From contig CAXXWX010000026.1 in assembly GCA_963675745.2 (NCBI GenBank), positions 128,001-192,000 of the forward strand: 64,000 nt of DNA, given 5' to 3'. Made by a program: the position numbers and the translations under genes. Origin of the DNA: Phycisphaerae bacterium. Lineage in GTDB: Bacteria > Planctomycetota > Phycisphaerae > UBA1845 > Fen-1342. A model generated the notes under the pieces. That model was not told the origin of the DNA. It made no database searches and saw nothing but the letters and a program-made list of their open reading frames with translations. Below, piece by piece: positions 29,932 to 55,989 of the stretch. Position 1 is the stretch's first letter. Every line of letters starts with the position of its first letter.

Positions 29932-32900
29932 CTAGGCGTGTGAAGATTCCATGTCAACGGCAGACAGTCCGTGCCCCGGCCGGTTGCGATAGAGAAGCCA
30001 GTACGTGACGGGAATAACAAACAGCGTGAACACGGTTGACGCGCCGAGCCCGAAGATCAGCGCCCAGGCCAGGCCGGAGAATATCGGATCGATCACAATC
30101 GGGGCGGCGGACAACATCGCCGTCCCCACCGTGAGCAGAATGGGCCGCAGCCGCACTACGCAGCTTTCGATGATCGCATCGTAAGAGTGGACGCCCCTGG
30201 CGCAGCGACAGATGGATGAAATCGACGATGATAACCGCCTGTCGCGTCACGATGCCGGAGAGAGCGATCATCCCGATCATGGCGGTCGCGGTGAAGAACG
30301 TGGGGTCCGCATACGGGCCAACCTGCCCGCCGGTGAAGATGTTCAGCAGCCAGAAGCCGGGCATGATGCCAATCACAGTCAGCGGAATCGCGAGCATGAT
30401 GACGACCGGCAGCCCGAACGAGCCCGTCTGCGCCACGAGCAGGATATAGATGCCGACCAGCGCGGCCACGAACGCCAGCCCCAGGTCACGAAAGACATCG
30501 AGCGTGATCTGCCATTCGCCTTCGCCGGTGAAAATCACGTCGAATCCTTCCGGCAGCCACCAGCTCACGTCGCCGCCGTTGGCCAGATACGTGCGATTGC
30601 CCACCGGACGTGGAGTGCCTTCGATCCAGCCGTTCCCGATCGCCGATCCTCGCGTCTGGCTTTGAGCATCGGCCCGCACGCGGTCAGTCTGCACGTCCAG
30701 GACAACCTCGGCCGGCGTTCGTCCCGCCACTTCGGCAAACACGTAGACCAGGCGCTCCAGGTTCTTGTGGTAGATCGTCTTGTCGACGTGCGTCTGTTCC
30801 CAGTGGCCGATCTCGTTCAGCGGGACGAGATTGCCGCCCTGCCCCTTGACGTAAACGCGTCCGAGATCATCAACACTTGAACGCCGGGCCCGCGGGAGAC
30901 GCAGTTCGATCATGAGCGGGTGGCGTTCGAGCGGCACCTGCACCGTACCGGCGGACGCCCCTTGCAGCGCGATGCGCGTCGTCTGCGTGATGTCGGCCAC
31001 CGTCACACCATTCAGCGCGGCCTTCTCCTTGTCCGTCACGAAGACCAGCTTGGCGGCGTCGGCTTCAATGCTGATATCCACGTCGACAACGCCGGGCTCC
31101 TTCGTCAGCCGCGCTTGCACGACCCGCGCCGCCGCGATGAGGTCGTCATAGCGATTGTCGGGGCGGCCACGGACCTCAGCGACCAGGGTTGCGATCACCG
31201 GCGGCCCCGGCGGCGACTCGACAACCGACAGCACCGCCCCGTAACGCTGTGCGATCTCCGTCAACTCGTCGCGCACGCGCAGCCCGATCGCGTGGCTTTG
31301 TGTCGAGCGGTTCTTCTTGCCGACGAAATTGGCCCGGATGTCGGCGACCGCGGGCCCCTCGCGCAGGTAGTAGTGGCGGACGAGGCCGTTGAAATCCATG
31401 GGCGAGGCGAGGCCCACATACGACGTGAAATCCACGACTTCCGGTGTGCGCGCCAGGTACCCTTCAAATTCGCGCACCGCCGCATCGGCCCGTTCGAGTG
31501 TAATAGTCTCGTCAAAGTCGAGGACGAACTGGAGCTCGTTCTTGTTGTCAAAGGGCAGCATCTTCAGCGGGACGGCCCGCACGGCCGCCAGCGCGCCCGC
31601 TCCGACCAACAGCACCGCCATCGCGCCGAGCAACCCCCAGGCCAGACGGTTTGAACGCAGTAGCGCGCTCATCAGCGGAGAAAAAAGACGGTACAACACA
31701 CTCGCGCGAACGCTTGCGAGGTCATCCTCCTCGCCCGCGGCCGCGGCGGTGTCGGGCCCGGGAGCCGCCAAGCCGATCCGCCGTCTCAGGACGTGGAAGC
31801 ACAGCCAGGGTGTGATGGTGAACGCCACGACCATCGACATCACCATCGTGACCGGGACGTTGAGCGCCATTGGCGCCATGTATGGGCCCATCATGCCCGT
31901 GATGAAGAACAAGGGCAGGAACGAGACGATGACGGCCAGCGTCGCGGTGATCAAAGGCGGACGGATTTCGGCCACCGCCTCCAACACGATCTCACGCGTC
32001 GCCCGACGGCGCAACTTGAAATGCCGGGCGATGTTCTCCACGTCCACGATCGGGTCGTCAACAAGCAGTCCCAGTGACAGGATCAAGGCAAAGAGCGTAA
32101 CACGGTTAATCGTGTAGCCACACAGCAGGTTCACCGTGAGCGTCAGCCCAAAGACAACGGGCACCGCCACGGCGACAATCAGCGCCTCCCGCCAGCCGAG
32201 CCCCAGCGTAAGCAGGGCAATGACGATGAAAACGGCGACCGCCAGCGCCTCGACCAGCTCGTTGACCTTCTCGTTCGCGGTCAGACCGAAGTTGCGCGTG
32301 ATGATCAACTCCATGTTGTCCGGGATCATCTCGGCCCGCAGGCGCTCCGCGGTGGCAAGCACGTCGCGCGCCACCCAGACGGCGTTGGACCCCTTCTTCT
32401 TGGCAACGGCGATCGTCACCGCCGGCTGCGCGGCGGCCGCATTTGCGGGGTCTTGAGCCGGGGCGCCAACGCACTGCCCCGGAAACCCCTCGTGGGCTGA
32501 GAATCCACGCGCAGGCCCCCACCCATGCCGCACATACCCATCGACCTCAGCCGGACCATCCACGATCTCGGCAACGTCTTTGAGGAAGATGGGATGGTCT
32601 TCCACAACGCGTACGACCAGATCGTCCAATTCCCGGGGACTGCCAAGAGCCTTACCGGACTCGACAACGTATGACTGATCCCGCCGCGTGAAGTCGCCCG
32701 CCGTGATACTGACGTTTGCCGCGCGGATAGCGCGTTCAACCTCGAGTGGCGAGACGCCGTACGCGTGCATTCGCTCCGGGTCCAGGTACACCTGCACACG
32801 TCGCGGCTCGCCGCCGACCACGTACGCGCGGGACGTGTTCTTCACCGCGGCGAGGCGCTCCACGAGCTCCTCACCGACGCGGCGCAGCGCATGGCTGTCG

Positions 32901-33370
32901 GCCTGCGCGCTTGTGAGCGTCAGCGTAACAATGGGCACATCGTCAATCTCGACCGGCTTGACCACCCAGCCGGCCACGCCCGGCGGGGCTAGGTCGAGGT
33001 TTTCGTCGATCCGCTTATATAGCTTAACGAGGCTGCGCTCGCGGTCCTCGCCAACGTAGAAGCGAACGGTGATAATCGCCAGATCCGGACGCGACATCGA
33101 ATAGACGTATTCGACGCCGTCAATCTGGTACAGGATGCGTTCCAGTGGCGTGGTGACCAGCCGTTCCACTTCCGCTGCCGAGTGGCCGGGGAACTGAACG
33201 TATACATCGGCCATCGGCACCACAATTTGCGGGTCCTCCTCCCGCGGCGTAACCAGCAACGCCGCCAACCCCAGAACGGCGGAGAGAATAATCAGCACGA
33301 TGGACAGGTTTGACCGCAGAAAAACGTGGACGATGGCGTTCGTGAAGCCGTGCGAGCGGTCGGCGGACAT
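29932..33370 (-). CDS. RND efflux permease (AcrB/AcrD/AcrF family); +1 frameshift at about 30183
   Basis: It has PREEDPQI, SLGLLVDDPIVDVENI and GIVTRQAVIIVDF. Removing one T from CTCTTAC restores GRPLYDAIIESCVVRLRPILLT and joins ORF 29932..30156. Confidence 0.92.
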
Positions 33371-35179: not shown

Positions 35180-36947
35180 CTAGCAGGCCGCGCTGGGCGT
35201 AAACCTGCTCGATCCGGGCGCGATGTAATCCTCGGCGGCGGTTGACAGGAACTTCGACGCGCGCTCGCTGATGATTCGCGAGACGATCTGCTCGTTTGCG
35301 TCGTTTGCCTTGGCGGCAACCAGGCTGCGAATGGAGAACACGTTGACAGGAACTTCGACGCGCGCTCGCTGATGATTCGCGAGACGATCTGCTCGTTTGC
35401 GTCGTTTGCCTTGGCGGCAACCAGGCTGCGAATGGAGAACACACGTAGCGCGTCAGATACCGACCTTCGGCCGAGTCCTTGCGACCGGTGAACGGGTAGG
35501 TATCCGGACCCCGCTGGCACTGGCTGTTGATGTTGACGCGGCAGACCTGGTTGACCAGCACGTCAACCAACCGGCTCAGGCGTGTCGCGTCCGCTCCGAA
35601 CAGTGCCGCCTGTTGCCCGTATGGGCAGGCGATTATCCAGTCGATCACCGTTTGTTCATCGTCATACGGAACGATCGGCACGACCGGGCCAAACTGTTCA
35701 AGCTGGCAGACCCGCATCTCGGGCGTACAAGGATAAAGAACGGCCGGGTAGTAGAGCGTCTGGTCGATCGTTCCGCCGCCGGCGTTGATCACCTGCGCTC
35801 CGCCCGCCACCGCCTCGTCCACTATCTCTTTCAGCCACTGCGGCTTGCCGGCCTCGGGCAGTGGGGTGATATTCACACCCTCTTCCCATGGCATGCCAAC
35901 GGTCAAGCCCTCGACCTGCGCGCTCACCCGCTTGCAGAAGTCGTCGGCAACGCTGCGGTGGCAGAAGATGATCTTGATCGCCGTACACCGTTGTCCGTTA
36001 TACGAGAACGCGCCGAGCACGCACTCGCGCGCGGCCAGGTCGAGATCGGCGTCCGGCAAGACCACCGCCGGATTCTTGGCGTCCAACCCCAGCACGCAGC
36101 GCAGCCGATTCAACTTCGGGTGCTGATGCTTCAGAATGCTCGCCACTTTCGCCGACCCGATGAAGGCCAGAACGTCGATCCGCCCGCTTTTCATGAGCGG
36201 CCCAACCACCACCGACCCATCACCATAGACGGTGTTCACAACCCCCGGCGGGAACGACTCCGCAAACGCCTGGAGCAACGGCGCGTGCAGGAGCACGCCA
36301 TACTTCGGCGGTTTGAAAATCACGGTATTGCCCATGATCAGCGCGGGGATCAACGTGGTGAACGTCTCGTTGAGCGGGTAATTGTACGGCCCCATGCACA
36401 GGACCACGCCGAGGGGACTACGTCGGATCTGGGCCAGGAAGCCCGGTTCCAGGGCAAAGCGCGAGCTGATCCGATCCAGCTCCTTCAATGCCTCGACGGT
36501 GGCCCGTACGTAATCCACGGTTCGGTCGAATTCCTTGCGGGCGTCCGGCAACGTCTTGCCGATTTCCCACATCAGAATACGAACCACGCGGTCGCGCGCG
36601 AGCTGCATCCGCGGGATAAAGGCCTCGACGCGACGGATTCGATCCGCAACCGCCATCGTTGGCCATTCGCCGCAGCCCTTGCCAAAGGCGTCGCACGCGG
36701 CCTCCAGCGCGTGCAGAGACTCCACTTCGGTCATGAGAGGATAGCCCCCCAGGGCAACTTGAGCCGGACCCTCCGCGCCACGCAGGCATACCGGCGATAG
36801 CACCTCTCGCTTTGGGCCGGCCCACGGGAGCACCTGGCCGTTCAACAGATAGTGATGGCCTTCCCGCGATCGTTCGAACCTGGCCTGCTCCGGGATGGCA
36901 TCTGGAGCCGGAAAGACATCTGATGGCGCTTTCACCTGGGTGGGCAT
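35180..36947 (-). pseudogene. gapN: NADP-dependent non-phosphorylating glyceraldehyde-3-phosphate dehydrogenase (aldehyde dehydrogenase family); 3' end disrupted, real or by assembly
   Basis: It has GPYNYPLNET, KPPKYG, FIGS, LGLDAKN, SYNGQRCTA, EQFGP and QRGPDTYPFTGRKDSAEG. The frame shifts at about 35465 (TL apparently missing before SVSDALRVFSIRS), and a 101-bp duplication follows. Confidence 0.8.
35241..35442. repeat. 101-bp direct tandem duplication in the gapN 3' end
   Basis: GTTGACAGGAACTTCGACG...ATGGAGAACAC occurs at 35241-35341 and again at 35342-35442. Confidence 0.93.
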
Positions 36948-37048
36948 GACCGCCTCCGATCTGGCACGCTGCCACTGGCAACGGCCGTCATTATTGCCCA
37001 ATTCAGGCGATTGTGCAGGTCACGCCATGAGTCTTTTGCACGCGGCGG

Positions 37049-37162
37049 TCAAGCGCCGCGCGTGGTCGGCCACGGACGGTGAGGAGCGAGGGACAGGAAA
37101 GCACTGGCGGTCAGCAGCCAGACCACCGCCAGGACGTCAATCGTGCGGGTTATCGAATTCAT
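37049..37162 (-). CDS. 37-aa ORF (MNSITRTIDVLAVVWLLTASAFLSLAPHRPWPTTRGA); small membrane peptide or signal-peptide-only gene remnant
   Basis: An AAGGAG SD lies 6 nt upstream. The ORF has a hydrophobic core and sits 84 nt downstream of the conserved motif copy 2. Confidence 0.4.
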   Translation of the reverse strand: MNSITRTIDVLAVVWLLTASAFLSLAPHRPWPTTRGA

Positions 37163-37245
37163 CGCCATCTCCTTGCGGTCTGTACGGCCAGGTCACCAGC
37201 GGGCCGGCCCCACTGATGCCGGCCCCGGAGACCAATGCTCGGTCT

Positions 37246-37293
37246 CACAAGAGAGTTCGAACAAGATAGCGGATTCAGCCCCCCGAAAGGGAA
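37246..37293 (-). promoter_or_regulatory. Conserved upstream motif, copy 2
   Basis: Matches 28577-28624 (17-bp exact core, 38/48 identity) in the same orientation. Confidence 0.65.
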
Positions 37294-37683
37294 AATTCTT
37301 CTACGTGCCCACGCGAGACTTCGTCCGGCTCCCATGGGGATCCGAACTGACGCATTCAGCATACCCAAGCCGTGTTCACAGCCGAAGCACCACAAGCTGG
37401 CTGATCAGTACGCCCTCCGCGATGTTATCCCTGTCGAGCTTGTCGCATCGCCGCGCCGTCGTAGACATACCGCTGGGCGATGAAGTCGCGGCTCTGGTTG
37501 CCCGAGGCCGCGACGAACTCGTCAGCCCGCCGGCAACTTAACGATGTGCGCACTCCAGGCCGCGGGGTTGCTCAAGATTTGCTGGCGACGCCTTACCCAT
37601 CTCAGTACGATGGAGGGGCGTGGAGTGCCGAGTCCCGCCCCACTTCTCGGCCGTGTGATCGGTGCTCCAAATGGGAGAGCAAC

Positions 37684-40600
37684 GTGAATCTAATCCGGCT
37701 GCGGCATCCCCCATCAAGCGTGACCCGCATGCTGGTAACCCACCTCATCGTGATGCTGGTCTTGATCGCGGGGTGTCCACGTGTTTCGACGCCGACTGCA
37801 CCCGTTGCGCCGTCAGACCCCGCCACGACCGGTAACGATCAGAACACCGGCCCCGCGCCGACGACACCGGCGGACGAAACCCCGTCGCACCCCGCTCCGA
37901 ACGAAGGTGATCTGAGCCCAGGCGCGGAACCGACTGATACTGATCCCAACAACCCGGCCGTAGCGGACACGCAGCCGGGGTGTATTGTCTGTCACGCCCT
38001 TGCACAAGGAGACCGTCGCGCCGTGGCTACACTGTCCGGGGCGAGTGCACACCTCGGGACTGTGACCGACGCGATCTGCCAGAACTGCCACGAGATGACC
38101 AGGCATCGCAGTGGCGTCATTCGACTGTGGGGAAGTGTCGCGGTTAAATCCGTGGTTCTCTCCATCTCGAACGACGCCGATGCGCCAACCGATCTGACGG
38201 CATTCTGTGGCAATTGCCACGCGAATACTGGTGACTTCCGGCATCCCAGCGACGGGCGAATAACCTGCAATTCCTGCCACGATGTGCATGCACCCTTGCG
38301 GGGTAATCTGGCGCTGATCCGCCAATCGGTCCTCAACCCGACCGGCCGGGGCACGACCAAGGTGGTGTTCACGGCGCGCAGCGGCGTTGGCAGCTTTGAT
38401 GACGGCGACCCGGCGGCCAACGACGGCGTCTGCCAGGTGTGTCACACCGGCACGGTGTTCCACCGCTACGACGGCTCCGGCATCGCGCACTTCGCCGGCG
38501 CGGATTGCGCGAGTTGCCACTCGCATGCCGACGGCTTCATCTCCGGGGCCGGCTCGTGCATCGCCTGCCACAGCACGCCGCAAGGCACCCGCCTGGCGGT
38601 GGTGGCCGCGGACGGCGGTGGCGGGCACCATCTCGACGAAGCCGTGCTCAGCGACGACGACTGCCTGGTCTGCCACGACACGAGCGCGCACCAGGAAGGC
38701 GTCGTGCGCGTCTGGTCCGACCCGACCAATCCGACGGCGGCGTTGCCGCTGACCGGTGAGGCGGCAGAGCTGGTCTCGTTCTGCGACGCCTGCCACAGCG
38801 CGCTGACGCATCCGACGATCCACACGGTGGGCGCGGACTGGGAGCCGGTCTGCACGGAGTGTCACGAGCTTCACGATCCGCAGAACGCCAACCTGGCGCT
38901 GGTGCGTGACGTGATCCACAATCAGACGCTGAGCGCCGACCGGCCGGTGGTATTCACGGCGCGCACGGGTGGCGGCAGCTTTGATGACGGCGACCCGGCG
39001 GCCAACGACGGCGTCTGCCAGGTGTGTCACACCGGCACGGTGTTCCACCGTTACGACGGCTCCGGCATCGCGCACTTCGCCGGCGCGGACTGCGCGAGCT
39101 GCCATGCGCATGCCGACGGCTTCATCTCCGCCGCCGGCTCGTGCATCGCCTGCCACAGCACGCCGCAAGGCACCCGCCTGGCGGTGGTGGCCGCGGACGG
39201 CGGTGGCGGGCACCATCTCGACGAAGCCGTGCTCAGCGACGACGACTGCCTGGTCTGCCACGACACGAGCGCGCACCAGGAAGGCGTCGTGCGCGTCTGG
39301 TCCGACCCGACCAATCCGACGGCGGCGTTGCCGCTGACTGGTGATTCGGCGGAGCTGGTCCCGTTCTGCGACGCCTGCCACAGCGCGCTGACGCATCCGA
39401 CGATCCACACGGTGGGCGCGGACTGGGAGCCGGTCTGCACGGAGTGTCACGAGCTTCACGATCCGCAGAACGCCAACCTGGCGCTGGTGCGTGACGTGAT
39501 CCACAATCAGACGCTGAGCGCCGACCGGCCGGTGGTGTTCACGGCGCGCACGGGCACCGGCAGCTTCGATGACGGCGACCCGGCGGCCAACGACGGCGTC
39601 TGCCAGGTGTGTCACACCGGCACGGTGTTCCACCGCTACGACGGCTCCGGCATCGCGCACTTCGCCGGCGCGGACTGCGCGAGCTGCCATGCGCATGCCG
39701 ACGGCTTCATCTCCGCCGCCGGCTCGTGCATCGCCTGCCACAGCACGCCGCAAGGCACCCGCCTGGCGGTGGTGGCCGCGGACGGCTCCGGCGGGCACCA
39801 TCTCGACGAAGCCGTGCTCAGCGACGACGACTGCCTGGTCTGCCACGACACGAGCGCGCACCAGGAAGGCATCGTGCGCGTCTGGTCCGACCCGACCAAT
39901 CCGACGGCGGCGTTGCCGCTGACCGGTGAGGCGGCAGAGCTGGTCTCGTTCTGCGACGCCTGCCACAGCGCGCTGACGCATCCGACGATCCACACGGTGG
40001 GCGCGGACTGGGAGCCGGTCTGCACGGAGTGTCACGAGCTTCACGATCCGCAGAACGCCAACCTGGCGCTGGTGCGTGACGTGATCCACAATCAGACGCT
40101 GAGCGCCGACCGGCCGGTGGTGTTCACGGCGCGCACGGGCACCGGCAGCTTCGATGACGGCGACCCGGCGGCCAACGACGGCGTCTGCCAGGTGTGTCAC
40201 ACCGGCACGGTGTTCCACCGCTACGACGGCTCCGGCATCGCGCACTTCGCCGGCGCGGACTGCGCGAGCTGCCATGCGCATGCCGACGGCTTCATCTCCG
40301 CCGCCGGCTCGTGCATCGCCTGCCACAGCACGCCGCAAGGCACCCGCCTGGCGGTGGTGGCCGCGGACGGCTCCGGCGGGCACCATCTCGACGAAGCCGT
40401 GCTCAGCGACGACGACTGCCTGGTCTGCCACGACACGAGCGCGCACCAGGAAGGCATCGTGCGCGTCTGGTCCGACCCGACCAATCCGACGGCGGCGTTG
40501 CCGCTGACCGGTGAGGCGGCAGAGCTGGTCTCGTTCTGCGACGCCTGCCACAGCGCGCTGACGCATCCGACGATCCACACGGTGGGCGCGGACTGGGAGC

Positions 40601-42879
40601 CGGTCTGCACGGAGTGTCACGAGCTACACGATCCGCAGAACGCCAACCTGGCGCTGGTGCGTGACGTGATCCGCAATCAGACGCTGAGTACCGACCGGCC
40701 GGTGGTGTTCACGGCGCGCAGCGGCGTTGGCAGCTTTGATGACGGCGACCCGACGGCCAACGACGGCGTCTGCCAGGTGTGTCACACCGGCACGGTGTTC
40801 CACCGTTACGACGGCTCCGGCATCGCGCACTTCGCCGGCGCGGACTGCGCGAGCTGCCATGCGCATGCCGACGGCTTCATCTCCGCCGCCGGCTCGTGCA
40901 TCGCCTGCCACAGCACGCCGCAAGGCACCCGCCTGGCGGTGGTGGCCGCGGACGGCGGTGGCGGGCACCATCTCGACGAAGCCGTGCTCAGCGACGACGA
41001 CTGCCTGGTCTGCCACGACACCAGCGCGCACCAGGAAGGCGTCGTGCGCGTCTGGTCCGACCCGACCAATCCGACGGCGGCGTTGCCGCTGACCGGTGAG
41101 GCGGCGGAACTGGTCCCGTTCTGCGACGCCTGCCACAGCGCGCTGACGCATCCGACGATCCACACGGTGGGCGCGGACTGGGAGCCGGTCTGCACGGAGT
41201 GTCACGAGCTTCACGATCCGCAGAACGCCAACCTGGCGCTGGTGCGTGACGTGATCCACAATCAGACGCTGAGTACCGACCGGCCGGTGGTGTTCACGGC
41301 GCGCACGGGCACCGGCAGCTTCGATGACGGCGACCCGACGGCCAACGACGGCGTCTGCCAGGTGTGTCACACCGACACGGTGTTCCACGTTTACGATGGC
41401 TCCGGGTCGGCGCACTTCGACGGCCAGGACTGTACGAGCTGCCACTCGCACCAGACGCACTTCTTGCTGTCCTTGAGTTCGTGCAGGGACTGCCACACGA
41501 CGATGCAGGACGATGGCGACGGCGTACCGCCGGACGGGCGGCGCGCGGTGCTGGCGGACTTTGCCCGCGCGAGCCACCACGTCTCGGCGAGCATTGCGGA
41601 CGAAGACTGCCTTGTGTGTCACGAGATGTCCCGGCACGGTCGGGGGCATGTGCGGTTGATTGACCCCGACGACGGAGTGACGGTGTATGTTCACGACCAG
41701 CTTGACGCGGATGAATTGACGCCGTTCTGCCTGCATTGCCATGACGCGAACGGCGCCACCGCCGGCAACTGGAATCAACCATTCAGCGACGGCGCGACGG
41801 TCCCGGACATCGATCAGTCAGGACGCTGGGCCACGTCGGCGCACGCGACCGGCGGAACAACGAATCCCGGGCAAGGCTGCACCGACTGCCACGGCAACGG
41901 CCACGGCTCCAATCTTCGCCACCTGCTACTGCCCGCGGACGGCTCACCAGGCACGGATAATACAAACGAGGAAGAGGGATTCTGCCTGGCGTGCCACTCA
42001 ACCGGCGTAGTCGTGAACGAAGCCGTCTCGAACGGCTGGTTCGGCGGGGTGTACGCGGACTTCACAAACGACATCGCCGCGACGCTCGGCCAGCATGCAT
42101 CACACCCGGTTGTCGATTCCGCGGATGGGCACGTCTTCGACCTGGGGCTGGGGCCGCAGGAGCTTGAGTGCACCTCTTGCCACAGCGTGCACCAGGACTC
42201 CGGCAAATACTGGGCGGCACCCAACGGGAAGACGCCGGTAACGCGCTGGGGGAGTGGCGAACTCTGGGGCGACGACGCGGGCGAAAAGGTCGGGCAGTTT
42301 GATCCGACTGGGATTTACCAGGCGCCGGCGATCGGTGAAGCGGGTTCCAACCTCTCCGGCGACCCGCTTCCGATCGGATTCGATGACGAGTCGCTGCTCA
42401 CCGCGGATGTGCTTCCGGATTACAACGCGTTCTGCCTGACCTGCCATCAGCACGCGTTCAACGGGCTCTTGGCGATCGACTGGGCGAGTGAAAAGCACGG
42501 CGCGGCCGCCGCTGAACCCGACGGACCGGCCGGTGCTGAGCTGGCAGCGCCATATGATTCGGCGGAGCGGGGCCACTATTTCCTGGCGTGCGTTGACTGT
42601 CACGAAACGCACGGCAGCGAGAACAACTGGCTGCTGAGGCGATCCGCGAATGGAGATGTCGTGTCCACGCTGTTAGCGCCGGACACAACGAACAACTGGG
42701 GTGACTTGTGTGGCAGGTGCCACCTAACCAGCCTGCTGAACACCCACCACAATAGTGACGTCTGGCGTAACAAGCTCGGCATGCCTCCGGGCAGCCCGGA
42801 TTGCCAGCGCTGCCACGAACCCGTACCCGAGGTGAGCTGCATGACGTCCGGATGCCACAACCACAACGAGTTCTTCTGA
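37684..42879 (+). CDS. Giant multiheme c-type cytochrome lipoprotein (about 1,730 aa; 46 CxxCH plus one CX4CH)
   Basis: A GGAGAG SD precedes the GTG at 37684. It has the lipobox LIAGC and a Pro/Thr-rich tether. Manual count gives 4 + 5x6 + 12 CxxCH motifs and a terminal CMTSGCH. Confidence 0.93.
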   Translation: MNLIRLRHPPSSVTRMLVTHLIVMLVLIAGCPRVSTPTAPVAPSDPATTGNDQNTGPAPTTPADETPSHPAPNEGDLSPGAEPTDTDPNNPAVADTQPGCIVCHALAQGDRRAVATLSGASAHLGTVTDAICQNCHEMTRHRSGVIRLWGSVAVKSVVLSISNDADAPTDLTAFCGNCHANTGDFRHPSDGRITCNSCHDVHAPLRGNLALIRQSVLNPTGRGTTKVVFTARSGVGSFDDGDPAANDGVCQVCHTGTVFHRYDGSGIAHFAGADCASCHSHADGFISGAGSCIACHSTPQGTRLAVVAADGGGGHHLDEAVLSDDDCLVCHDTSAHQEGVVRVWSDPTNPTAALPLTGEAAELVSFCDACHSALTHPTIHTVGADWEPVCTECHELHDPQNANLALVRDVIHNQTLSADRPVVFTARTGGGSFDDGDPAANDGVCQVCHTGTVFHRYDGSGIAHFAGADCASCHAHADGFISAAGSCIACHSTPQGTRLAVVAADGGGGHHLDEAVLSDDDCLVCHDTSAHQEGVVRVWSDPTNPTAALPLTGDSAELVPFCDACHSALTHPTIHTVGADWEPVCTECHELHDPQNANLALVRDVIHNQTLSADRPVVFTARTGTGSFDDGDPAANDGVCQVCHTGTVFHRYDGSGIAHFAGADCASCHAHADGFISAAGSCIACHSTPQGTRLAVVAADGSGGHHLDEAVLSDDDCLVCHDTSAHQEGIVRVWSDPTNPTAALPLTGEAAELVSFCDACHSALTHPTIHTVGADWEPVCTECHELHDPQNANLALVRDVIHNQTLSADRPVVFTARTGTGSFDDGDPAANDGVCQVCHTGTVFHRYDGSGIAHFAGADCASCHAHADGFISAAGSCIACHSTPQGTRLAVVAADGSGGHHLDEAVLSDDDCLVCHDTSAHQEGIVRVWSDPTNPTAALPLTGEAAELVSFCDACHSALTHPTIHTVGADWEPVCTECHELHDPQNANLALVRDVIRNQTLSTDRPVVFTARSGVGSFDDGDPTANDGVCQVCHTGTVFHRYDGSGIAHFAGADCASCHAHADGFISAAGSCIACHSTPQGTRLAVVAADGGGGHHLDEAVLSDDDCLVCHDTSAHQEGVVRVWSDPTNPTAALPLTGEAAELVPFCDACHSALTHPTIHTVGADWEPVCTECHELHDPQNANLALVRDVIHNQTLSTDRPVVFTARTGTGSFDDGDPTANDGVCQVCHTDTVFHVYDGSGSAHFDGQDCTSCHSHQTHFLLSLSSCRDCHTTMQDDGDGVPPDGRRAVLADFARASHHVSASIADEDCLVCHEMSRHGRGHVRLIDPDDGVTVYVHDQLDADELTPFCLHCHDANGATAGNWNQPFSDGATVPDIDQSGRWATSAHATGGTTNPGQGCTDCHGNGHGSNLRHLLLPADGSPGTDNTNEEEGFCLACHSTGVVVNEAVSNGWFGGVYADFTNDIAATLGQHASHPVVDSADGHVFDLGLGPQELECTSCHSVHQDSGKYWAAPNGKTPVTRWGSGELWGDDAGEKVGQFDPTGIYQAPAIGEAGSNLSGDPLPIGFDDESLLTADVLPDYNAFCLTCHQHAFNGLLAIDWASEKHGAAAAEPDGPAGAELAAPYDSAERGHYFLACVDCHETHGSENNWLLRRSANGDVVSTLLAPDTTNNWGDLCGRCHLTSLLNTHHNSDVWRNKLGMPPGSPDCQRCHEPVPEVSCMTSGCHNHNEFF
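38361..41388 (+). repeat. 585-bp (195-aa, hexaheme) near-identical tandem repeat, about 5.2 copies
   Basis: TGCCAGGTGTGTCAC (CQVCH) recurs at 38431, 39016, 39601, 40186, 40771 and 41356. Confidence 0.97.
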
Positions 42880-43360: not shown

Positions 43361-46300
43361 CTAACGCCGATACGCGGCCCGGCGGCTGCGCCTCCGGTTA
43401 TGTCGCTTCAAGCCAACCAGCCCAAACAACACAAAGATCGGCATGATACCCAGCATGCCGCAGGCGTTAATCGGCGTGACGGTCTCAACAATGGTCAAGT
43501 CAACATCATCGACGTCGACCTCGGCCATGGTTTGGGCGGCGTTCGGTGTGGGTGTTTCCTCACAGGTGGTGCTTGCGTTCACAGTGACTTTGCCGGACAC
43601 GAGCAGTCTGAGCACCAGTTCGATCTGAACATCCTCGTCCGGGATGACGTCGCCGAGCTCGATCGTAATCTGGCCATCTTCAACATAAGCGTTGAGCGGC
43701 ATCGCCTGCGCCGCCTGTCCGGCGATCCACCACGCGGAGACGAATTCCGTATTCTCCGGCAGCGGGATTGTCAGCAGGACGTCAGTGGCAGTGCCGTTGC
43801 CGACATTCTCGACCGAGGCACCAAATGTCACTTCATCGCCGACGTAGGCATCTTCGGCGGGCGCGTCAATCCGTACGCGGAGGTCGGGTGCGGGATTGAC
43901 TGGCGGTGGTGTCTCCTCGACCGAGGTTGTGAACACAACGTCGTCGCCATACACCGTACCGGCGCTGTTGGTGGCGTAGGCGGCGACGTAGTAGGTCGTG
44001 TTTGGGTCCAGGCCGGTGATGTTACTGGCAAATACGCCGGTGCCGGTGCCATCCGTGGTCTTGTCGTCGTCGATGGTCGGATTGGTGAACGTGCTCCAGC
44101 ACACGCCACGCGTTGTGACCGCGTCACCGCCGTCGGCGGTAACATTGCCACCGGCATCGGCGGTCGTCGTGGTAATGTTGGAGATCACGGTCGTCGTTAC
44201 CGTCGGCGCGGCGTCCGCCGTGAACGACACTTGGCTACCATAGCTGGTACCGATGGCGTTCGTGGCATACGCCCGGACATAGTATGTCGTGCCGGCGGTC
44301 AGCCCTGTGATGGTGCTGGTGAACTCGCCGGTACCCGTGCCGTCAGTAGTCTTGCTGTCAGCGGTGGTCGGACTTTCCGACATGCTCCAGCACACACCGC
44401 GGACGCTGACATCGGCTCCGCCGTCATCAGCCACGGCGCCCCCCGATCGTGCAGATGTAATCGTGATGTCCGACACCGCGGCGGTTGTCACGGTCGCGAC
44501 CGTGGTGAGAGCGGCCGTGGTGAGGCTGACCTCATCACCATACGCCGTTCCCGCGGCGTTGGTCGCGTAGGCTCGGACGTAGTAAGTCGTGCCGGCGGTC
44601 AGGTCCGGTGATACTGCTCGTGAACTCTCCGGTGCCCGTACCGTCGGTCGTCTTGCTGTCAGCCGTGGTCGGGTTCTCCGACGTGCTCCAGCAAACACCA
44701 CGCGCTGTCACCGCATCGCCACCGTCGTCTGTGACATTACCGCCCGAGTCAGCGGCTGTCTCAGTGATGTTGGAGACCGCCGTCGTCGTCACCGTCGGCG
44801 CACTGTCAGCCGTGAACGAGACTTGGCTGCCGTAGCTGGTGCCGACGGCGTTCGTGGCGTACGCCCGGACATAGTACGTCGTCCCGGCGGTCAGGCCGGT
44901 GATACTGCTCGTGAACTCACCGGTTCCCGTACCGTCGGTCGTCTTGCTGTCGGCGGTCGTCGGACTCTCCGACGTGCTCCAGCAAACGCCACGCGCTGTC
45001 ACCGCGTCGCCGCCTTCGTCGTCACGTTGCCACCCGAGTCGGCGGTGGCATCGGCGACGTTGGATACGGCTGTGGTAGTTACGGTCGGCAGCGAATCTGC
45101 CGTAAACGACACTTGGCTGCCGTAGCTGGTGCCGACGGCGTTCGTCGCGTAAGCCCGAACGTAGTAAGTCGTCCCGGCGGTCAGCCCGATGATACTGCTC
45201 GTGAACTCGCCGGTTCCCGTACCGTCGGTCGTCTTGCTGTCAGCGGTCGTCGGGCTCTCCGACGTGCTCCAGCAAACGCCACGCGCCGTGACCGCGTCGC
45301 CGCCATCGTCGGTGATGTTGCCGCCCGAGTCGGCGGCTGTCTCGGTAATGTTCGAGATCGCCGTCGTCGTCACGGTCGGCGCACTGTCGGACGTAAACGA
45401 GACCTGGCTGCCGTAGCTCGTGCCGACAGCGTTGGTCGCGTAGGCCCGAACGTAGTAAGTCGTCCCGGCGGTCAGCCCGGTGATGCTGCTGGTGAACTCG
45501 CCGGTTCCCGTGCCGTCGGTCGTCTTGCTGTCGACGGTGGTCGGACTCTCCGACGTACTCCAGCAAACGCCGCGCGCTGTAACCGTGTCGCCACCTTCGT
45601 CCGTCACGTTGCCACCCGAGTCGGCGGTGGTATCGGCGACGTTGGATACGGCTGTGGTAGTTACGGTCGGCAGCGAATCTGCCGTAAACGAGACTTGGCT
45701 GCCGTAGCTGGTGCCGACGGCATTGGTCGCGTAGGCTCGGACGTGGTAAGTCGTGCCCGCGGTTAGGTCGGTGATACTGCTGGTGAACTCACCGGTTCGC
45801 CATCGGTCGTCTTGCTGTCGGCGATCGTCGGGCTCTCTGACGTGCCAGTGACGGCATCGCCGCCGTCGTCCGTGACGTTGGTCACGTCACCGTCGGTGCC
45901 GAATCCGCCGTGAATGAGACTTGGCTGCCATAGCTCGTGCCGACGGCGTTCGTGGCGTACGCCCGGACATAGTACGTCGTGCCGGCGGCTCAGGCCGGTG
46001 ATACTGCTCGTGAACTCGCCGGTCCCCGTGCCATCGGTCGTCTTGCTGTCGGCGGTGGTCGGGCTCTCTGACGTGCTCCAGCACACACCACGTGCCGTAA
46101 CCGCGTCGCCGCCATCGTCGTCACGTTGCCACCCGAGTCGGCCGTCGTCTCTGTGATGTTCGAGATCGCCGTCGTCGTCACCGTCGGTGCGCACTGTCCG
46201 CCGTGAACGAGACCTGGCTGCCGTAGCTCGTACCGACGGCGTTCGTGGCGTACGCCCGAACATAGTACGTCGTGCCGGCCGTCAGACCCGTGATGCTGCT

Positions 46301-49300
46301 CGTGAACACGCCGGTACCCGTGCCGTCGGTCGTCTTGCTGTCGGCGGTGGTCGGACTCTCCGACGTGCTCCAGCAAACGCCACGCGCCGTGACCGCGTCG
46401 CCACCATCGTCCGTCACGTTACCACCCGAATCAGCCGTCGTTTCGGTGATGTTCGTGATCGCGGTGGTGGTCACCGTCGGCGCCGAATCCGCCGTGAACG
46501 AGACCTGGCTGCCGTAGCTCGTACCGACGGCGTTCGTGGCGTACGCCCGAACATAGTACGTCGTGCCGGCCGTCAGACCCGTGATGCTGCTCGTGAACTC
46601 GCCGGTACCCGTGCCGTCGGTCGTCTTGCTGTCGGCGGTGGTCGGACTCTCCGACGTGCTCCAGCAAACGCCGCGCGCCGTGACCGTGTCGCCACCATCG
46701 TCGGTAACGTTACCACCCGAATCAGCCGTCGTTTCGGTGATGTTCGTGATCGCGGTGGTGGTCACCGTCGGCGCCGAATCCGCCGTGAATGAGACTTGGC
46801 TGCCATAGCTCGTACCGACGGCGTTCGTGGCGTACGCCCGAACATAGTACGTCGTGCCGGCCGTCAGACCCGTGATGCTGCTCGTGAACTCACCGGTTCC
46901 CGTGCCATCGGTCGTCTTGCTGTCGGCGGTGGTCGGACTCTCCGACGTGCTCCAGCAAACGCCACGCGCCGTGACCGTATCGCCGCCATCGTCGGTAACG
47001 TTACCACCCGAATCAGCCGTCGTTTCGGTGATGTTCGTGATCGCGGTGGTGGTCACCGTCGGCGCCGAATCCGCCGTGAATGAGACTTGGCTGCCATAGC
47101 TCGTGCCGACGGCGTTCGTCGCATAAGCCCGAACGTAATAAGTCGTCCCTGCGGATAGTCCAGTGATACTGCTCGTGAACTCACCGGTTCCCGTACCGTC
47201 GGTCGTCTTGCTGTCGGCGGTGGTCGGGCTCTCTGACGTGCTCCAGCAAACGCCGCGCGCCGTGACCGCATCGCCACCGTCATCCGTCACATTCCCGCCC
47301 GAGTCGGCCGTCGTCGCTGTGATGTTCGAGACGGCTGTGGTGGTCACGGTTGGCAGCGCGCTGACTGTCACATCGCGCGTATCTGTGATTTGCACCGCCG
47401 GATCACCCGCCATACCGCCGTATTCCACCACATATCCATCAAGGATGGGATCGTCGGGCAGATCGTTCCACTTTCCACCGCCGGAGGAATAAATCTCGGC
47501 GCAGTGCTCATTGCCGCCGCTGTTGTTGGGCTCCCCTGGATTCCAATTGGCAAACTGGCCGCCGACCGGCGTGCTGCCGTTCGAGAATTGCGTCCCGGCC
47601 TCGGGGCCGGTCACCCACTTCCAGACGCCCTCCACGGTTTCATCACTGCCGCCAATCCACGCGTCCGCGGCCAACTTCAGCGTAATGAAGTCGTTCTCTT
47701 CCTGCGAGGTGATGGTGGCAAGATAGCCCTGCATGCCGAACAAGGCGCTGGCGGCCGCGGCGTCCCGGGCGTCGCTCCAAGTGATCTCGTCGCTGGCGGC
47801 GTACTCGTAGAAGTGCGTGGTGCTGCCCAGTGGAATCGCCCCGCCCGCGGTGAAGGCGATCGTGCGCGTGGCCCGGCTGGCCGAGGTCGAGCTGAATGTG
47901 ACCGTGCGCAACAAGGTCTGCCAATCAGCGGCGCTGGCGGTTCCGCTGAATGAGAGGATGCCGGTGGTACCGCTGTACGACGCCGTGACGCCGCCCGGCA
48001 GCGCTCCGGTGTACGCGAGCACGTCATCCGTGTCGAAGTTGGTGGTGATGCTGACCATGAAGTCGGTGATGTCGCTGGCGACGATCTCGAGGTCGGGATC
48101 CACCGCAGCAGCGTCCCCGCCAATGAAGTAGTCCGCCGAGCCACCAGATGCTGTCACGGAGATGCCGGTAGTGAACTCGATCTCGCTGCCGTAAGCAGTG
48201 CCGACGCTGCTGGTGGCGTATGCGCGAACATAGTACGTCGTGCCGGCCGCCAGTCCGGTGATGCTGCTGGTGAACTCGCCGGTGCCGGTGCCGTCAGTCG
48301 TCTTGTCATCGCCAATGGTCGGATTGGTCGATGTGCTCCAGCACACGCCCCGAGCGCTGACGGTCTCGCCGCCGTCGTCGGTGACATTACCGCCCGAGGT
48401 AGCTGTTGTGGTGGTGATCTCCGTCACGGCGGCCGTGGTGACCGTCGGGACGGCGTTGGTCGTGAACGACACCTGGCTGCCGTAGCTCGTACCGACGCTG
48501 TTGGTGGCATAGGCCCGTACGTAGTAGGTCGTGCCCGTGGTCAGGCCGGTGATGCTGCTGGTGAACTCGCCGGTGCCCGTGCCATCGGTCGTCTTGCTGT
48601 CAGCAGTGGTCGGGCTCTCTGATGTGCTCCAGCACACGCCACGGGCCGTAACCGTGTCACCGCCGTCGGCAACGACGTCACCGCCGCCCGTAGCTGAGGT
48701 AGCGGCGATGTTACTGATGGCGGCGGTGTCCACGGTCGGAGCCTGGATGATCTCGCCCCCGTACACGGTGCAGAAGATCTCCCCGCCCTGCTCGTACACT
48801 GCGACGATATCGCCATACCGGTTGTTCAGCCCCAAACTGAGATAGTTGGCGCTGGCGATGGTGACGGCGTCGTCAAACGACGCGCCATTGTCAGTGCTGA
48901 TGGCGTATTTGACGCTGGCGCCGTCCACGTACCCGTCGATCACGTTGGAAAACGCGTCGACGGCCAACGTGCGTCCCTGACTGATCGAAGTGGTGCCAAA
49001 GGTCAGCGCCGTTTGCGAGTAGTCCGATACATCGATGCGCAGCGCGTCGCTGCCGCTGCCGCATGTGTAGAGGAAGACTCCGCCGTCGGTGGACGCCAAA
49101 ACGGTGGTGGAATACATGATCGAACCACCGGGTGTGTATGGCCCACTAAACGTGGCTCCATGGTCGGTGCTCTTGAAGACGTAGACTGTCGGGTCATCAG
49201 TCTGAACGTAGACGTCGCCCGTATCGGGATCAACGTGTACGTCGGCATACATACGCCAATCGTCCACCGTGGTCGTGCTGAACGCCCCAGAGCCGTTGCT

Positions 49301-49780
49301 GCCGTTGCGGAAGAGGGTCGCCCCATCCCTGGTTATGATGTACACATATGGGGAATCCACGGCCATGTGGACGGTGCTGGAGGCGGCCCCAAGGCTGCTC
49401 GGCGCGCTGAACGACACGCCGTTATCCGTGCTGCGTGAGAAGGTCGCCTGACCACCCTCGACCCAGGCGACGTGTACAACGCCGTCAGCGTCGACGGCAA
49501 TCTCGGCTTCCGCCGACGACGCATTGACCTGCACCGGAGCCTGGAAGCTCTCGCCGCGATTGGTGCTCCGCGCCACCCAGATGCCGCTGGGGTTGCGGTA
49601 CAGGACATAGATGGTCCCGTCCGGTGCCATCGCGACATTGCGACTCGTGTTCGGATATGCGATGCTGTTGGACGTTCCACTATCGGAAACCGGCACGTCG
49701 GCATAGAGCACTTCGGCCTGAGCCGTTGCCGCCAGCTCCAGGGCAACCAGGACCGCCCCCACCAGGTGTCGTGAAGTCAC
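43361..49780 (-). CDS. Giant surface protein (about 2,100 aa if intact): BNR/Asp-box propeller, about 14 FN3-like repeats, C-type lectin, DUF11-like domain, C-terminal CG-TM-Arg anchor; fragmented by several frameshifts at 44600-46200
   Basis: The start is AAGGAG + GTG at 49780, with a signal peptide. It has ST(D/N)xGxSF Asp boxes, 14 TTYYV(R/A)AYAT-type motifs across five ORF fragments and a lectin (WIG/EPN/WND). The tail reads NACGMLGIMPIFVLFGLVGLKRHNRRR. Confidence 0.85.
43915..47360 (-). repeat. Array of about 291-bp (97-aa) FN3-like repeats: 12 units here plus two more at about 48170-48745
   Basis: Recurring unit PTVTT...SGGNVTDDGG..VTARGVCWST..PT..D.KTTDGTGTGEFTSSITGL..GTTYYVRAYATN, with 291-nt offsets (46272/46563/46854). 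Confidence 0.93.
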
Positions 49781-50244
49781 TGTCTGTCTCCTTGGTCCAC
49801 AAGTTTGCTCGGCTCGAGTGTCCCTGCTGTGCCATGCCGCAAGCAGCAGGCGCGGCCAGTCCATGAAACAGGATGTTGCCAGAGAGTCCCGCCGCTTAGA
49901 GTGGCCGGTGCGGACAACACAAGTTCGAGCCGCCACAGCCCGTGCAGTGGCAAGAGCCGGACTGTCCCACCGGGCGCCGATCGCACTTCCGCCCTGACGG
50001 CAGCCGTCCTTCGCGTTTCCGCGGTCAGGATCTCTAGTGTCAGATCGGTACCGCAGGCCGGTGCAAAAAGTTGGAGGATTCAACGCGCTGGTTGGAGCAT
50101 CCAGGGGCAAGGTGGCCGGCCGGCTTTCGCAGGCCTAACCAGAAACACGGGGGAAGCATCTGCATGCCTGTGCCGCCGCCCATCAGGGTCTGGTTCAATG
50201 CGTCAACGTCACCTGTCGTGGCAGCAAACGCCCCGCCTGAGATG

Positions 50245-53796: not shown

Positions 53797-54435
53797 CTAC
53801 GTCATGCCGACAAGACTCTTGACCTGCTCGACCGCGCTGACCGCGTCGAAGCCGTAGGCGTCGGCCCCGATCTCGCGGGCGAACTCCGCAGACACCGGCG
53901 CCCCGCCGACAATCGTGCGAATCTCGCCGCTCAGTCCCCGCTCGCGCAGCAAATCGACCACAGTTTTCATCGCCGGCATGGTTGTCGTCAGCAGGGCCGA
54001 CATTCCAATCACCGGCGCGGCCAGCTTCCTGGCCTCGTCGATGAAGCGCTCCGGTGCCACGTCGTTACCCAGGTCGACGACGTCAAACCCCGCGCCCTTG
54101 AGCATGATGCCGACCAGGTTCTTGCCGATGTCGTGCAAATCACCCTGCACCGAGCCAACAACGACCTTGCCCAACGATGGCACGTCGTCCTTGATGAGCA
54201 ACGGTCTGATCAAGTCCAGCCCGGCGTTCATCGCCTTGGCGGCCATGAGCACTTCCGGCAGGAAGATTTCGTGCGCCTTGAATCGTTCACCGACCGTGGT
54301 CATCCCGCCAATCAGACCACTGTCCAGGATCTGCTTCGCGGAGAGACCGGCGTCTATTGCCTGGCTCGTGCGTTTCGCCGCCTGGTCCTCATCGCCGTTA
54401 ACGACGCTCTCGGCAAGCTCGGCCAACGTATCCAT
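53797..54435 (-). CDS. Methyltransferase corrinoid (cobalamin-binding) protein, MttC/MtbC-like
   Basis: It has the B12 cap FLPEVLMAAKAM, the DxHxxG motif GDLHDIGKNLV, MSALLTTT and GGAPVS. Confidence 0.95.
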   Translation of the reverse strand: MDTLAELAESVVNGDEDQAAKRTSQAIDAGLSAKQILDSGLIGGMTTVGERFKAHEIFLPEVLMAAKAMNAGLDLIRPLLIKDDVPSLGKVVVGSVQGDLHDIGKNLVGIMLKGAGFDVVDLGNDVAPERFIDEARKLAAPVIGMSALLTTTMPAMKTVVDLLRERGLSGEIRTIVGGAPVSAEFAREIGADAYGFDAVSAVEQVKSLVGMT

Positions 54436-54522
54436 GCCGGTTCTCCATGCAGGTCTTGACGCATTCAGTGTCCAAGCCGCGCGCCGATCCGCTCCCGTAC
54501 GACGGCGTCGGCGGGACCGCCC

Positions 54523-55989
54523 TTACTCGCCACACTCAGGCAGGCCGTCCATGCCAAACCGGCGGGCCTCAGCCTCCATGAGGCGGGTCAACTCCACCTT
54601 GATGTCGTCCGCCAGACGCGACGGCTGATAGGCGGCCAGCAGTCGCTGTACCTCGCCATGCGCCCGCTCGCGAAGACTGAGACCGCCCTCTTCCTGCCAA
54701 CGTGATCGGTTGGCCCGATCAATCGTCACGCCCGGGAAAAGGTGCTCGTCACGCAGGTGGCGTCTCGTGTGCTTCGAGATCAGCAGATGGTGTTCCGCGA
54801 GCAGCTCTTCGAAGCGAGGCAGGGCCGGAAAGTCCTCGCGGGGCTCGATGCCCTTCAACATGCGCAAGGTCATCCCGCAGATTTCGTTGTCCAAGATCAG
54901 CTTCTCGATGCTCAGGCAGCTCTCGAAGTCGAGCATGCCCGGCCCCGAAATGTTGTTGATCCCGGCGAGCGACGCCAGCGTCGCACCCATGGATGATTCC
55001 AGGCCCGCCTGGGCGTCAAGCTGCTTGCTGTCACTGAGCGCGATGTAGGCCTGCGTCGGCAGCCCGACGTGCTTGCCGATCTCGCTGTACGCGCAGTCCA
55101 GCATCATCGTCTCGACAGCGCCCATCGGCGTGGTCTCATAGCGAACGTCGAAAATCGCCGGCGAGCCGCCATAGAGTATCGGCGCGCCCGGTTTGGCAAG
55201 CTGGGAGATGACCACGCCGCTCAGAGTCTCGGCGGTGTGTTGCACCAGGCTGCCCACGAGGGTCACCGGCGCGACAAAACCCGCCAGCGGCATCGAAATG
55301 AACTCAACGGGAATAGCGCTCAAGGCACAATCGACCACGTTCTGGGAAGTGACATCACTCCACTTGAGCGGCGCCGTCGGGCAACATGAGAATATGCTGA
55401 GCGGCTTGGCCGCCAGCGCCTCGCTTGATCCGCGCACCGCTAGCTGAAGATCGCGCATGATGTTGAAGGCGTCCACCGTAAACGCGCCTGTCACAACCGG
55501 CTTCTCGCAGAAAAGCAGACTCAGGTACAGGCGAAAGCTGTCGGAGATTCGCTCATGAACATCGCGCGGGATCAGCGCGGTGCTCTGGGATGCGATATTG
55601 CCGAGTTGACTGACGACTTTTGCATAACGCACATAATCATGCGTCTTGGGCGTGCGCGTCGTGTTGGAGTCATAATCCAAAACGTTGATCGCCGCCGAAC
55701 CGGGCGTGTAGTAGACGTTTGAGCCGCCCAGCTCGTGGGTCTGCTCACCAAGCACGTCGTACAGCGCAAATGTTCCAGGGGCGGATTCGAGGGCTCGATA
55801 GATGATCTCGTCGGTCAAGACGACGCGCCGCACGTTTCCATCCACAGTGGCGCCGTGGTCTGAGAGCATCGAGAGGATGCCATCGTTGTGTATCTCGACG
55901 CCGATACTACAGAGGACGCCGCGTGCCTCGCGGACAATCTGCTCGATCAGCTCGTCGGTCAGGAATCTGACGGTCGGTCTCATCACCAC
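54523..55989 (-). CDS. mttB: Trimethylamine methyltransferase (MttB) superfamily protein, non-pyrrolysine
   Basis: It has APVTLVGSLVQHTAETLSG...Q..KPGAPILYG, SDSKQLDAQAGLES, GINNISGPGMLDF and EKLILDNEI. There is no in-frame TAG, and it is adjacent to the corrinoid gene. Confidence 0.9.
   Translation of the reverse strand: MVMRPTVRFLTDELIEQIVREARGVLCSIGVEIHNDGILSMLSDHGATVDGNVRRVVLTDEIIYRALESAPGTFALYDVLGEQTHELGGSNVYYTPGSAAINVLDYDSNTTRTPKTHDYVRYAKVVSQLGNIASQSTALIPRDVHERISDSFRLYLSLLFCEKPVVTGAFTVDAFNIMRDLQLAVRGSSEALAAKPLSIFSCCPTAPLKWSDVTSQNVVDCALSAIPVEFISMPLAGFVAPVTLVGSLVQHTAETLSGVVISQLAKPGAPILYGGSPAIFDVRYETTPMGAVETMMLDCAYSEIGKHVGLPTQAYIALSDSKQLDAQAGLESSMGATLASLAGINNISGPGMLDFESCLSIEKLILDNEICGMTLRMLKGIEPREDFPALPRFEELLAEHHLLISKHTRRHLRDEHLFPGVTIDRANRSRWQEEGGLSLRERAHGEVQRLLAAYQPSRLADDIKVELTRLMEAEARRFGMDGLPECGE

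Follow-up and report, generated by a model that had tools for sequence, protein, structure and literature searches.

A tandem array of hexaheme modules in a 47-motif lipoprotein cytochrome of a Phycisphaerae bacterium

The lipid-anchored multiheme cytochromes MtrC and OmcA of Shewanella and OmcB of Geobacter are terminal partners of porin conduits. They have a fixed size and 10-12 hemes, whereas the cytochrome described here has 47 motifs and is encoded in a genome, 91% complete, in which MtrB (PF11854) was not found (0/1). A single-chain wire can also arise when heme modules are duplicated and strung together, as in GSU1996 of Geobacter sulfurreducens, the dodecaheme wire that we take to be the protein of PDB entries 3OUQ and 3OV0. 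Our protein resembles it in this construction, but the unit of GSU1996 is a triheme c7 domain and the unit here is a hexaheme module with beta-hairpin inserts: a c7 polymer consists of triheme repeats of ~75 aa, and the present repeat is 195 aa long with six motifs. Predicted 27-heme single-chain wires of Desulfuromonadia are encoded outside porin-cytochrome operons (PMC11492766, partial text), as is the present protein. The PCC3 extracellular multiheme cytochromes, according to the available part of PMC5566968, have 34 heme motifs at the median and 63 at most, are built from repeats and are proposed to act as a wire; they are found in Proteobacteria, in gene clusters that also encode a porin, an inner-membrane protein and a periplasmic cytochrome. 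Our protein is likewise very large and built from sequence repeats, but, compared by description, it differs from PCC3 in that its gene stands alone and its product is lipid-anchored, with a 195-aa six-heme unit repeated at 91-98% identity. By the features tested, the protein would be neither a c7 polymer nor a PCC3 or Mtr member. Forty-seven hemes is no record, as 61 motifs are reported in a Lentimicrobium cytochrome (PMC13013709), 63 in PCC3, 86 in ANME (PMC9012536) and, from the mining of genomes, more than 100 (10.1101/2025.05.29.656830), and the modular grafting and pruning of cytochromes is an established idea (PMC9250108), all in the accessible parts of these sources.

The gene occupies positions 37684-42879 (+) of the window, by which we mean the whole 64-kb stretch of DNA analysed, and its frame runs uninterrupted from a GTG start to a stop codon over 1731 aa. 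A Shine-Dalgarno-like GGGAGAG (37673..37679, +) stands 4 nt before the GTG at 37684, which is also the start of database protein P0002. The ATG at 37480 was rejected as a start, since it would put 68 residues before the signal peptide and the ribosome site fits the GTG; long antisense ORFs over the gene were set aside as shadows of the repeat. A promoter and terminator scan gave no site on the strand of the gene that would explain it. The protein contains 46 CxxCH motifs, whereas 1000 shuffled versions have 0.4 on average and never more than 3, and in the mature part no CxxC is followed by a residue other than His. An earlier sequence-only reading had counted 46 hemes; this number stands for CxxCH, but one further CX4CH (CMTSGCH, 42838-42858) brings the potential total to 47, if it binds a heme.

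The chain begins with a predicted lipoprotein signal peptide (37684..37776, +; lipobox LIAG-C, Cys31), whose lipobox lies at the equivalent place in several full-length relatives, and continues with a 67-aa tether rich in Pro, Thr, Ala and Asp that is predicted to be flexible from its composition (37777..37977, +). When the protein is cut at GSCIACH, the tether is followed by module 0, a diverged hexaheme unit of 191 aa with 6 CxxCH and 49-55% identity to the other modules (37978..38550, +), and by five modules of 195 aa with 6 CxxCH each, all on the same strand: modules 1 (38551..39135), 2 (39136..39720) and 3 (39721..40305) have 10 spare His, module 4 (40306..40890) has 9, and module 5 (40891..41475), with a diverging end, has 11. 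Protein identity among modules 1-5 is 91-98%. The remaining 467 aa (41476..42879, +) form a half module and a C-terminal cap with 10 CxxCH and the CX4CH; the cap is 51-61% identical to those of P0003, P0101, P0172 and L008. The calculated mass of the mature chain is ~177 kDa, or 206 kDa with 47 hemes, and its pI is 4.8. Every part named in the sequence-only reading was thus recovered: the lipobox, the tether, five near-identical units with 9-11 spare His, degenerate flanking units and a distinct cap with a CX4CH. The gene encodes a real, intact 47-motif lipoprotein cytochrome.

On the DNA level the array is a 585-bp direct repeat of ~5.2 copies with mosaic variants (38361..41390, +). Its five copies differ pairwise at 6-21 bases, with a pN/pS of 0.30, and the segment 39362-40040 recurs exactly 585 bases further on, giving a longest exact run of 679 bp at this period. 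All four combinations occur at 23 of 66 informative site pairs, which is a mark of conversion or unequal crossover, although polishing across copies could mimic it. One could argue that the assembly had inflated one or two real copies, given the 679-bp stretch repeated exactly, mosaic variants that could stem from polishing, and, on the same contig, an aldehyde dehydrogenase gene with a frameshift and an exact duplication of 101 bp, and many frameshifts in the neighbouring FN3 array. However, the reads speak against this. The stretch was found in three runs of one study, probably including the source sample and so not independent, with no RNA dataset among them; run X3 was too thin for use, and the read-contig depth covers 36000-38960 (5' flank and repeat). 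The collapsed repeat contig has a depth of 37.5 in X1, against 8.8 and 7.6 in the flanks, and of 16.7 in X2, against 3.4-6.2. Four, five and six copies should give ratios of 3.1, 4.0 and 4.9; those obtained, 4.4 and 3.4, are near the expectation for about five, and one more or fewer fits too. Additionally, the collapsed contig contains the head-to-tail joint stepping back 585 bases and has the letters of the copy majority at all six listed sites (copy 1 differs there), and the frame is kept open across 3 kb of repeat. The depth argues against one or two copies and, contig depth being no copy number, does not fix five. An assembly artefact is therefore highly improbable, and the tandem amplification proposed from the sequence holds.

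The six CxxCH of the module are all kept in relatives. When 33 modules of 11 further proteins are compared, five of the spare His never vary and another three are retained in 25-26 of the modules, so that the conserved spare His would provide distal ligands enough for six hemes per module. The 9 sites of the cap are matched by 9 spare His that all five close relatives preserve, and CxxCK is absent. These numbers fit a predicted bis-His ligation, with which electron conduction would be more likely than catalysis; a catalytic cap is not favoured, as there is no CxxCK and the His count matches. The spacing in the module is 32.5 aa per heme, and the densest cytochromes, with ~20 aa per heme, are packed tighter (10.1101/2025.05.29.656830, partial text).

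Profile and structure searches placed the protein only broadly. Pfam and NCBIfam gave only generic cytochrome domains above cut-off: PF14522 passed, its best stretch covering 52 residues, TIGR03508 reached 80 bits against a cut-off of 192, and no MtrC domain matched at E 0.001. The module profile, compared with solved structures, found 3OUQ weakly (E 5e-5, ~90 positions) and did not match the nanowire cytochromes OmcS, OmcE and OmcZ; the cap profile found 7TFS weakly (E 1.5e-6, 56 positions) amid many generic heme matches. In the ESM Atlas the module hit only generic cytochrome clusters (best 0.90). A model of two modules had a mean pLDDT of 72.5, a low-confidence stretch at residues 140-182 and a pTM of 0.48, by which the relative position of the modules is not fixed. 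With this model Foldseek gave no match at E 0.001 (best NrfB, E 4.7), VIA-align gave a single row (NrfB, Z 3.2, rmsd 6.2, 114 aligned, residues 2-181), and c7 appeared in no row of the fold searches. The cap model (pLDDT 42) was unusable. Fold searches on a model of such moderate quality indicate neither a known nor a new fold.

With the whole sequence as the query, 60 other proteins and 73 genome loci were retrieved. All but one of the best 54 of the 73 loci come from Phycisphaerae or Planctomycetota records, in agreement with the earlier guess of a probable planctomycete. The closest of the 60 proteins have 1 to 4 full modules each, most complete relatives have 1-3, and the relatives overall range from about 1 to at least 6; insofar as it means that module number differs among relatives, the earlier description of the protein as length-tunable is supported. 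The front end is repeatedly one of two kinds, either a lipoprotein tether or an NHL propeller, and there are likewise two caps. The same tether and cap as here are found in P0003, which has two modules and 22 CxxCH, exactly 24 fewer, corresponding to four modules fewer. Separately, an NHL-fronted protein (L022) has expanded to at least 6 modules with 43 motifs before being truncated by a contig end, and L033 has independently reached 4. The modules of P0004 are 50-53% identical to each other, and some of the expansions in relatives would thus be old. P0015 also has 46 CxxCH; its five full modules, divided between two blocks, are of a longer subtype, and it ends in what we take to be a secretion-tail-like pattern. 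The present protein is the longest complete lipoprotein member that we found of an apparently undescribed hexaheme-module family. A literature search at the level of main texts returned no description of the module, and the available parts of PMC10732223, PMC11266412, PMC11475568 and 10.1101/2025.11.06.686851 do not mention it.

When 39 modules of 12 proteins were placed in a tree, the five copies of this protein and the pairs in P0007, P0009 and P0012 cluster by protein (support 0.996-1.0), and the modules of P0010 and P0011 cluster by position. Therefore, both fresh re-amplification and stable inheritance occur. The frame runs off the contig end at 15 of the 29 best loci, inside a module at 13 of these, so the long forms are probably under-reported and the heme counts of such genes underestimated. 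One genome has four such contig ends (L023, L047, L026, L043), all broken within a module; its NHL form and its lipoprotein form end in an identical 141 bases, hinting at exchange between paralogues.

The module is accessory in the family: it was detected in 8 of 71 other family genomes, in none of 3 genomes of the genus and, in a wider sample at E 0.001, in 6 of 60. The lipoprotein-form relatives have no conserved neighbourhood. At L103:5609-15548, a 14-heme relative with the same cap has recombinase/integrase genes on one side and heterodisulfide reductase-like genes on the other. The RND pump encoded upstream of our gene (29954-33370, -) is 74% identical to a pump located 8 kb from a module gene in a different genome (L037:1-1507), possibly reflecting a shared mobile context. 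Judged by its context, the cytochrome gene resembles an accessory of porin-undecaheme conduits that is mobile and detached from them.

Such a conduit, which the sequence-only reading had proposed to look for, is putatively present on another contig (C3) of the source genome. The cluster (L004:4418-13576) encodes an 11-heme protein, an NHL lipoprotein, a 649-aa porin-like protein, a 4-heme protein, an NHL-8-heme protein and an 8-heme lipoprotein. We call the 649-aa protein porin-like from its sequence pattern, its gene neighbourhood and a weak hint in the Atlas, where one cluster has Porin_4 in 33% (score 0.88); the protein ranks 4th of 2033 long proteins by a crude alternating-strand score and has no Pfam match. 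The presence of its gene in 60 of 71 other family genomes suggests that the putative conduit is family-wide. A second, divergent porin-like copy (25-31%) occurs in 6 of the 8 module-bearing family genomes and is absent from the 63 others; the six represent just three genera and are not independent of each other. This copy precedes an 11-heme homologue in five of the stretches examined, shares a contig with a 25-heme module protein in G013, and in L099 belongs to a cluster with CcsB/CcsA directly downstream. At 7 of 19 distant loci (6 distinct clusters), genes for module-core proteins adjoin homologues of C3 genes, namely of the NHL and the 9-11-heme type. These neighbourhood tallies are lower bounds, since the simple gene caller mis-called frames in L033, L040, L047, L050 and L095. 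The ~690-aa genes of L081 and L091-L094 were considered as porin homologues and rejected, as they do not match the porin-like protein of the source genome; the only ~690-aa genes that match it are those of L085, L089 and L082. The source genome, at 91% completeness, shows no second porin-like copy, and the lipoprotein-form relatives share no neighbourhood, so the pairing of our cytochrome with the C3 conduit is one that we infer.

A comparable set of genes is the Uet cluster of Ca. Tenderia electrophaga, which comprises tetra/pentaheme, beta-barrel-like and NHL proteins and an undecaheme (10.1101/2022.05.06.490989, partial text). The clusters of C3 and of the relatives match it in gene content, in L099 including CcsB/CcsA, and are likened to it by gene content alone. 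The Uet-like cluster is the likely partner system and not the counterpart of the giant cytochrome; no giant module cytochrome is named in the available part of the Uet description. In Desulfovibrio ferrophilus, Fe(III) oxide reduction was unimpaired after deletion of NHL-associated cytochrome clusters (PMC9769857, partial text), a caution against reading too much into gene context.

The source genome also encodes the means to mature cytochromes c, the lack of which would have spoken against the sequence-only reading. A CcsA-type gene on contig C26 exceeds the PF01578 cut-off, has the WGxxWxWD motif and scores 142 bits with TIGR03144, below the cut-off of 187.6; the adjoining partner gene is 33% identical to a Ccs fusion. 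Thus a system II (Ccs) pair was found, and CcmE was not found in this 91% complete genome. Contig C26 (L002:1-9130, L001:13364-18703) also carries two cytochrome b-multiheme c fusions, one with 8 motifs and the other with 6, as well as an NHL-20-heme protein; the Ccs pair and an 8-heme lipoprotein are their neighbours. A run of genes on contig C6 (L003:6946-13150), encoding a TmcC/HmcE-like membrane protein, an Fe-S protein, an NrfD with six heme motifs and a 23-heme cytochrome, is a candidate quinol-linked complex. This NrfD/Fe-S/23-heme cluster and the cytochrome b-c clusters are possible quinol links. In total the genome has 21 called genes with three or more CxxCH, and five secretin matches.

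We consider it moderately probable that the protein is an accessory surface electron wire fed by the porin-NHL-undecaheme conduit of C3. It would be exported by Sec, lipidated, provided with hemes by CcsBA and delivered to the surface, possibly via a type II-like secretion system, where it would exchange electrons with the undecaheme conduit in either direction. Each module would add roughly 5-8 nm, for a total of about 35-60 nm if linear: the spacing that we assume for OmcS would give 47 linear hemes about 37 nm, and scaling from 350 A per 27 hemes (PMC11492766, partial text) would give ~60 nm. The array would be grown and homogenised by unequal crossover and gene conversion, so that both reach and capacity would change in steps of six hemes.

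The lipobox, however, does not tell the membrane or the face on which the protein sits. The protein could instead be an inner-membrane lipoprotein that spans the periplasm and connects complexes oxidising quinol with the outer-membrane conduit at its inner face, its module number tracking the width of the periplasm, which in planctomycetes is large and variable. As this arrangement would have it, there are several unlinked clusters on the quinol side in the genome and a single conduit, and long periplasmic wires possibly joining both membranes have been proposed (PMC11492766, partial text). Nevertheless, that source quotes a periplasm of 17 nm, which the estimated 35-60 nm far exceeds. The porin-like gene is present in 60 of the 71 family genomes although 63 of the 71 lack the module, so the conduit does not depend on the module for its supply of electrons, and distant core-bearing proteins carry PKD-type surface domains. 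We regard the periplasmic placement as unlikely.

Two further readings concern what the length is for, and both seem to us distinctly improbable. In one, the protein is mainly an electron store whose 47 hemes per chain buffer respiration as acceptors fluctuate, copy number being capacity and geometry minor. The predicted all-bis-His design with no catalytic site and the stand-alone gene with no partner nearby would suit a store, but more copies of a small cytochrome would be a simpler route to capacity, and relatives keep module proteins beside conduit genes; storage is, besides, compatible with a wire role and not exclusive of it. In the other, a two- or three-module cytochrome has gained extra copies by recombination that are tolerated rather than selected, and its length is functionally meaningless. 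The 1-3 modules of most complete relatives, the very young and mosaic copies (the 23 of 66 site pairs described above) and the neighbouring FN3 gene, likewise a recent tandem array, are in line with this, yet independent expansions to 4 and at least 6 modules exist elsewhere (L033, L022), some expansions being old, with all motifs kept, and each extra module costs six hemes. The surface wire, in its boldest form, would be an accordion: near-identical hexaheme modules would be gained and lost through recombination in living populations, as in adhesin repeat arrays, and would be exchanged among paralogues, which would determine both the distance and the amount of conduction, much longer alleles would be hidden since short-read assemblies break in the array, and the wire would plug into a porin-undecaheme conduit core to a Phycisphaerae family not known as electroactive. 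We offer this extended version only tentatively, as it is rather doubtful in its entirety.

The family forms a natural length series, in which a single six-heme unit is present in 1 to at least 6 copies between ends that stay the same, and this series could be used to ask how conduction and storage scale with the length of a single-chain wire. The hexaheme unit could also serve as a stackable module for designed protein wires. Furthermore, these genes point to extracellular electron transfer in planctomycetes of a lineage for which carbon degradation and the reduction of nitrate or sulfur are the main activities described (PMC11266412, partial text).

The surroundings of the gene are as first described, with no porin, quinol oxidase or maturation gene adjoining it: the neighbours scanned are an aldehyde dehydrogenase, the RND pump and pieces of an FN3 surface protein, and no other called gene of the 64-kb window contains CxxCH. 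The 3' end of the aldehyde dehydrogenase gene has the exact 101-bp tandem duplication (35241-35442), with the frameshift nearby. Downstream, at 43361-50110 (-), a large FN3 tandem-repeat surface protein with a 291-bp period and C-type lectin and DUF11 domains is split into several frameshifted pieces, which may be assembly errors or decay. Further on, at 53797-55989 (-), a corrinoid protein is paired with a trimethylamine methyltransferase of the MttB family.
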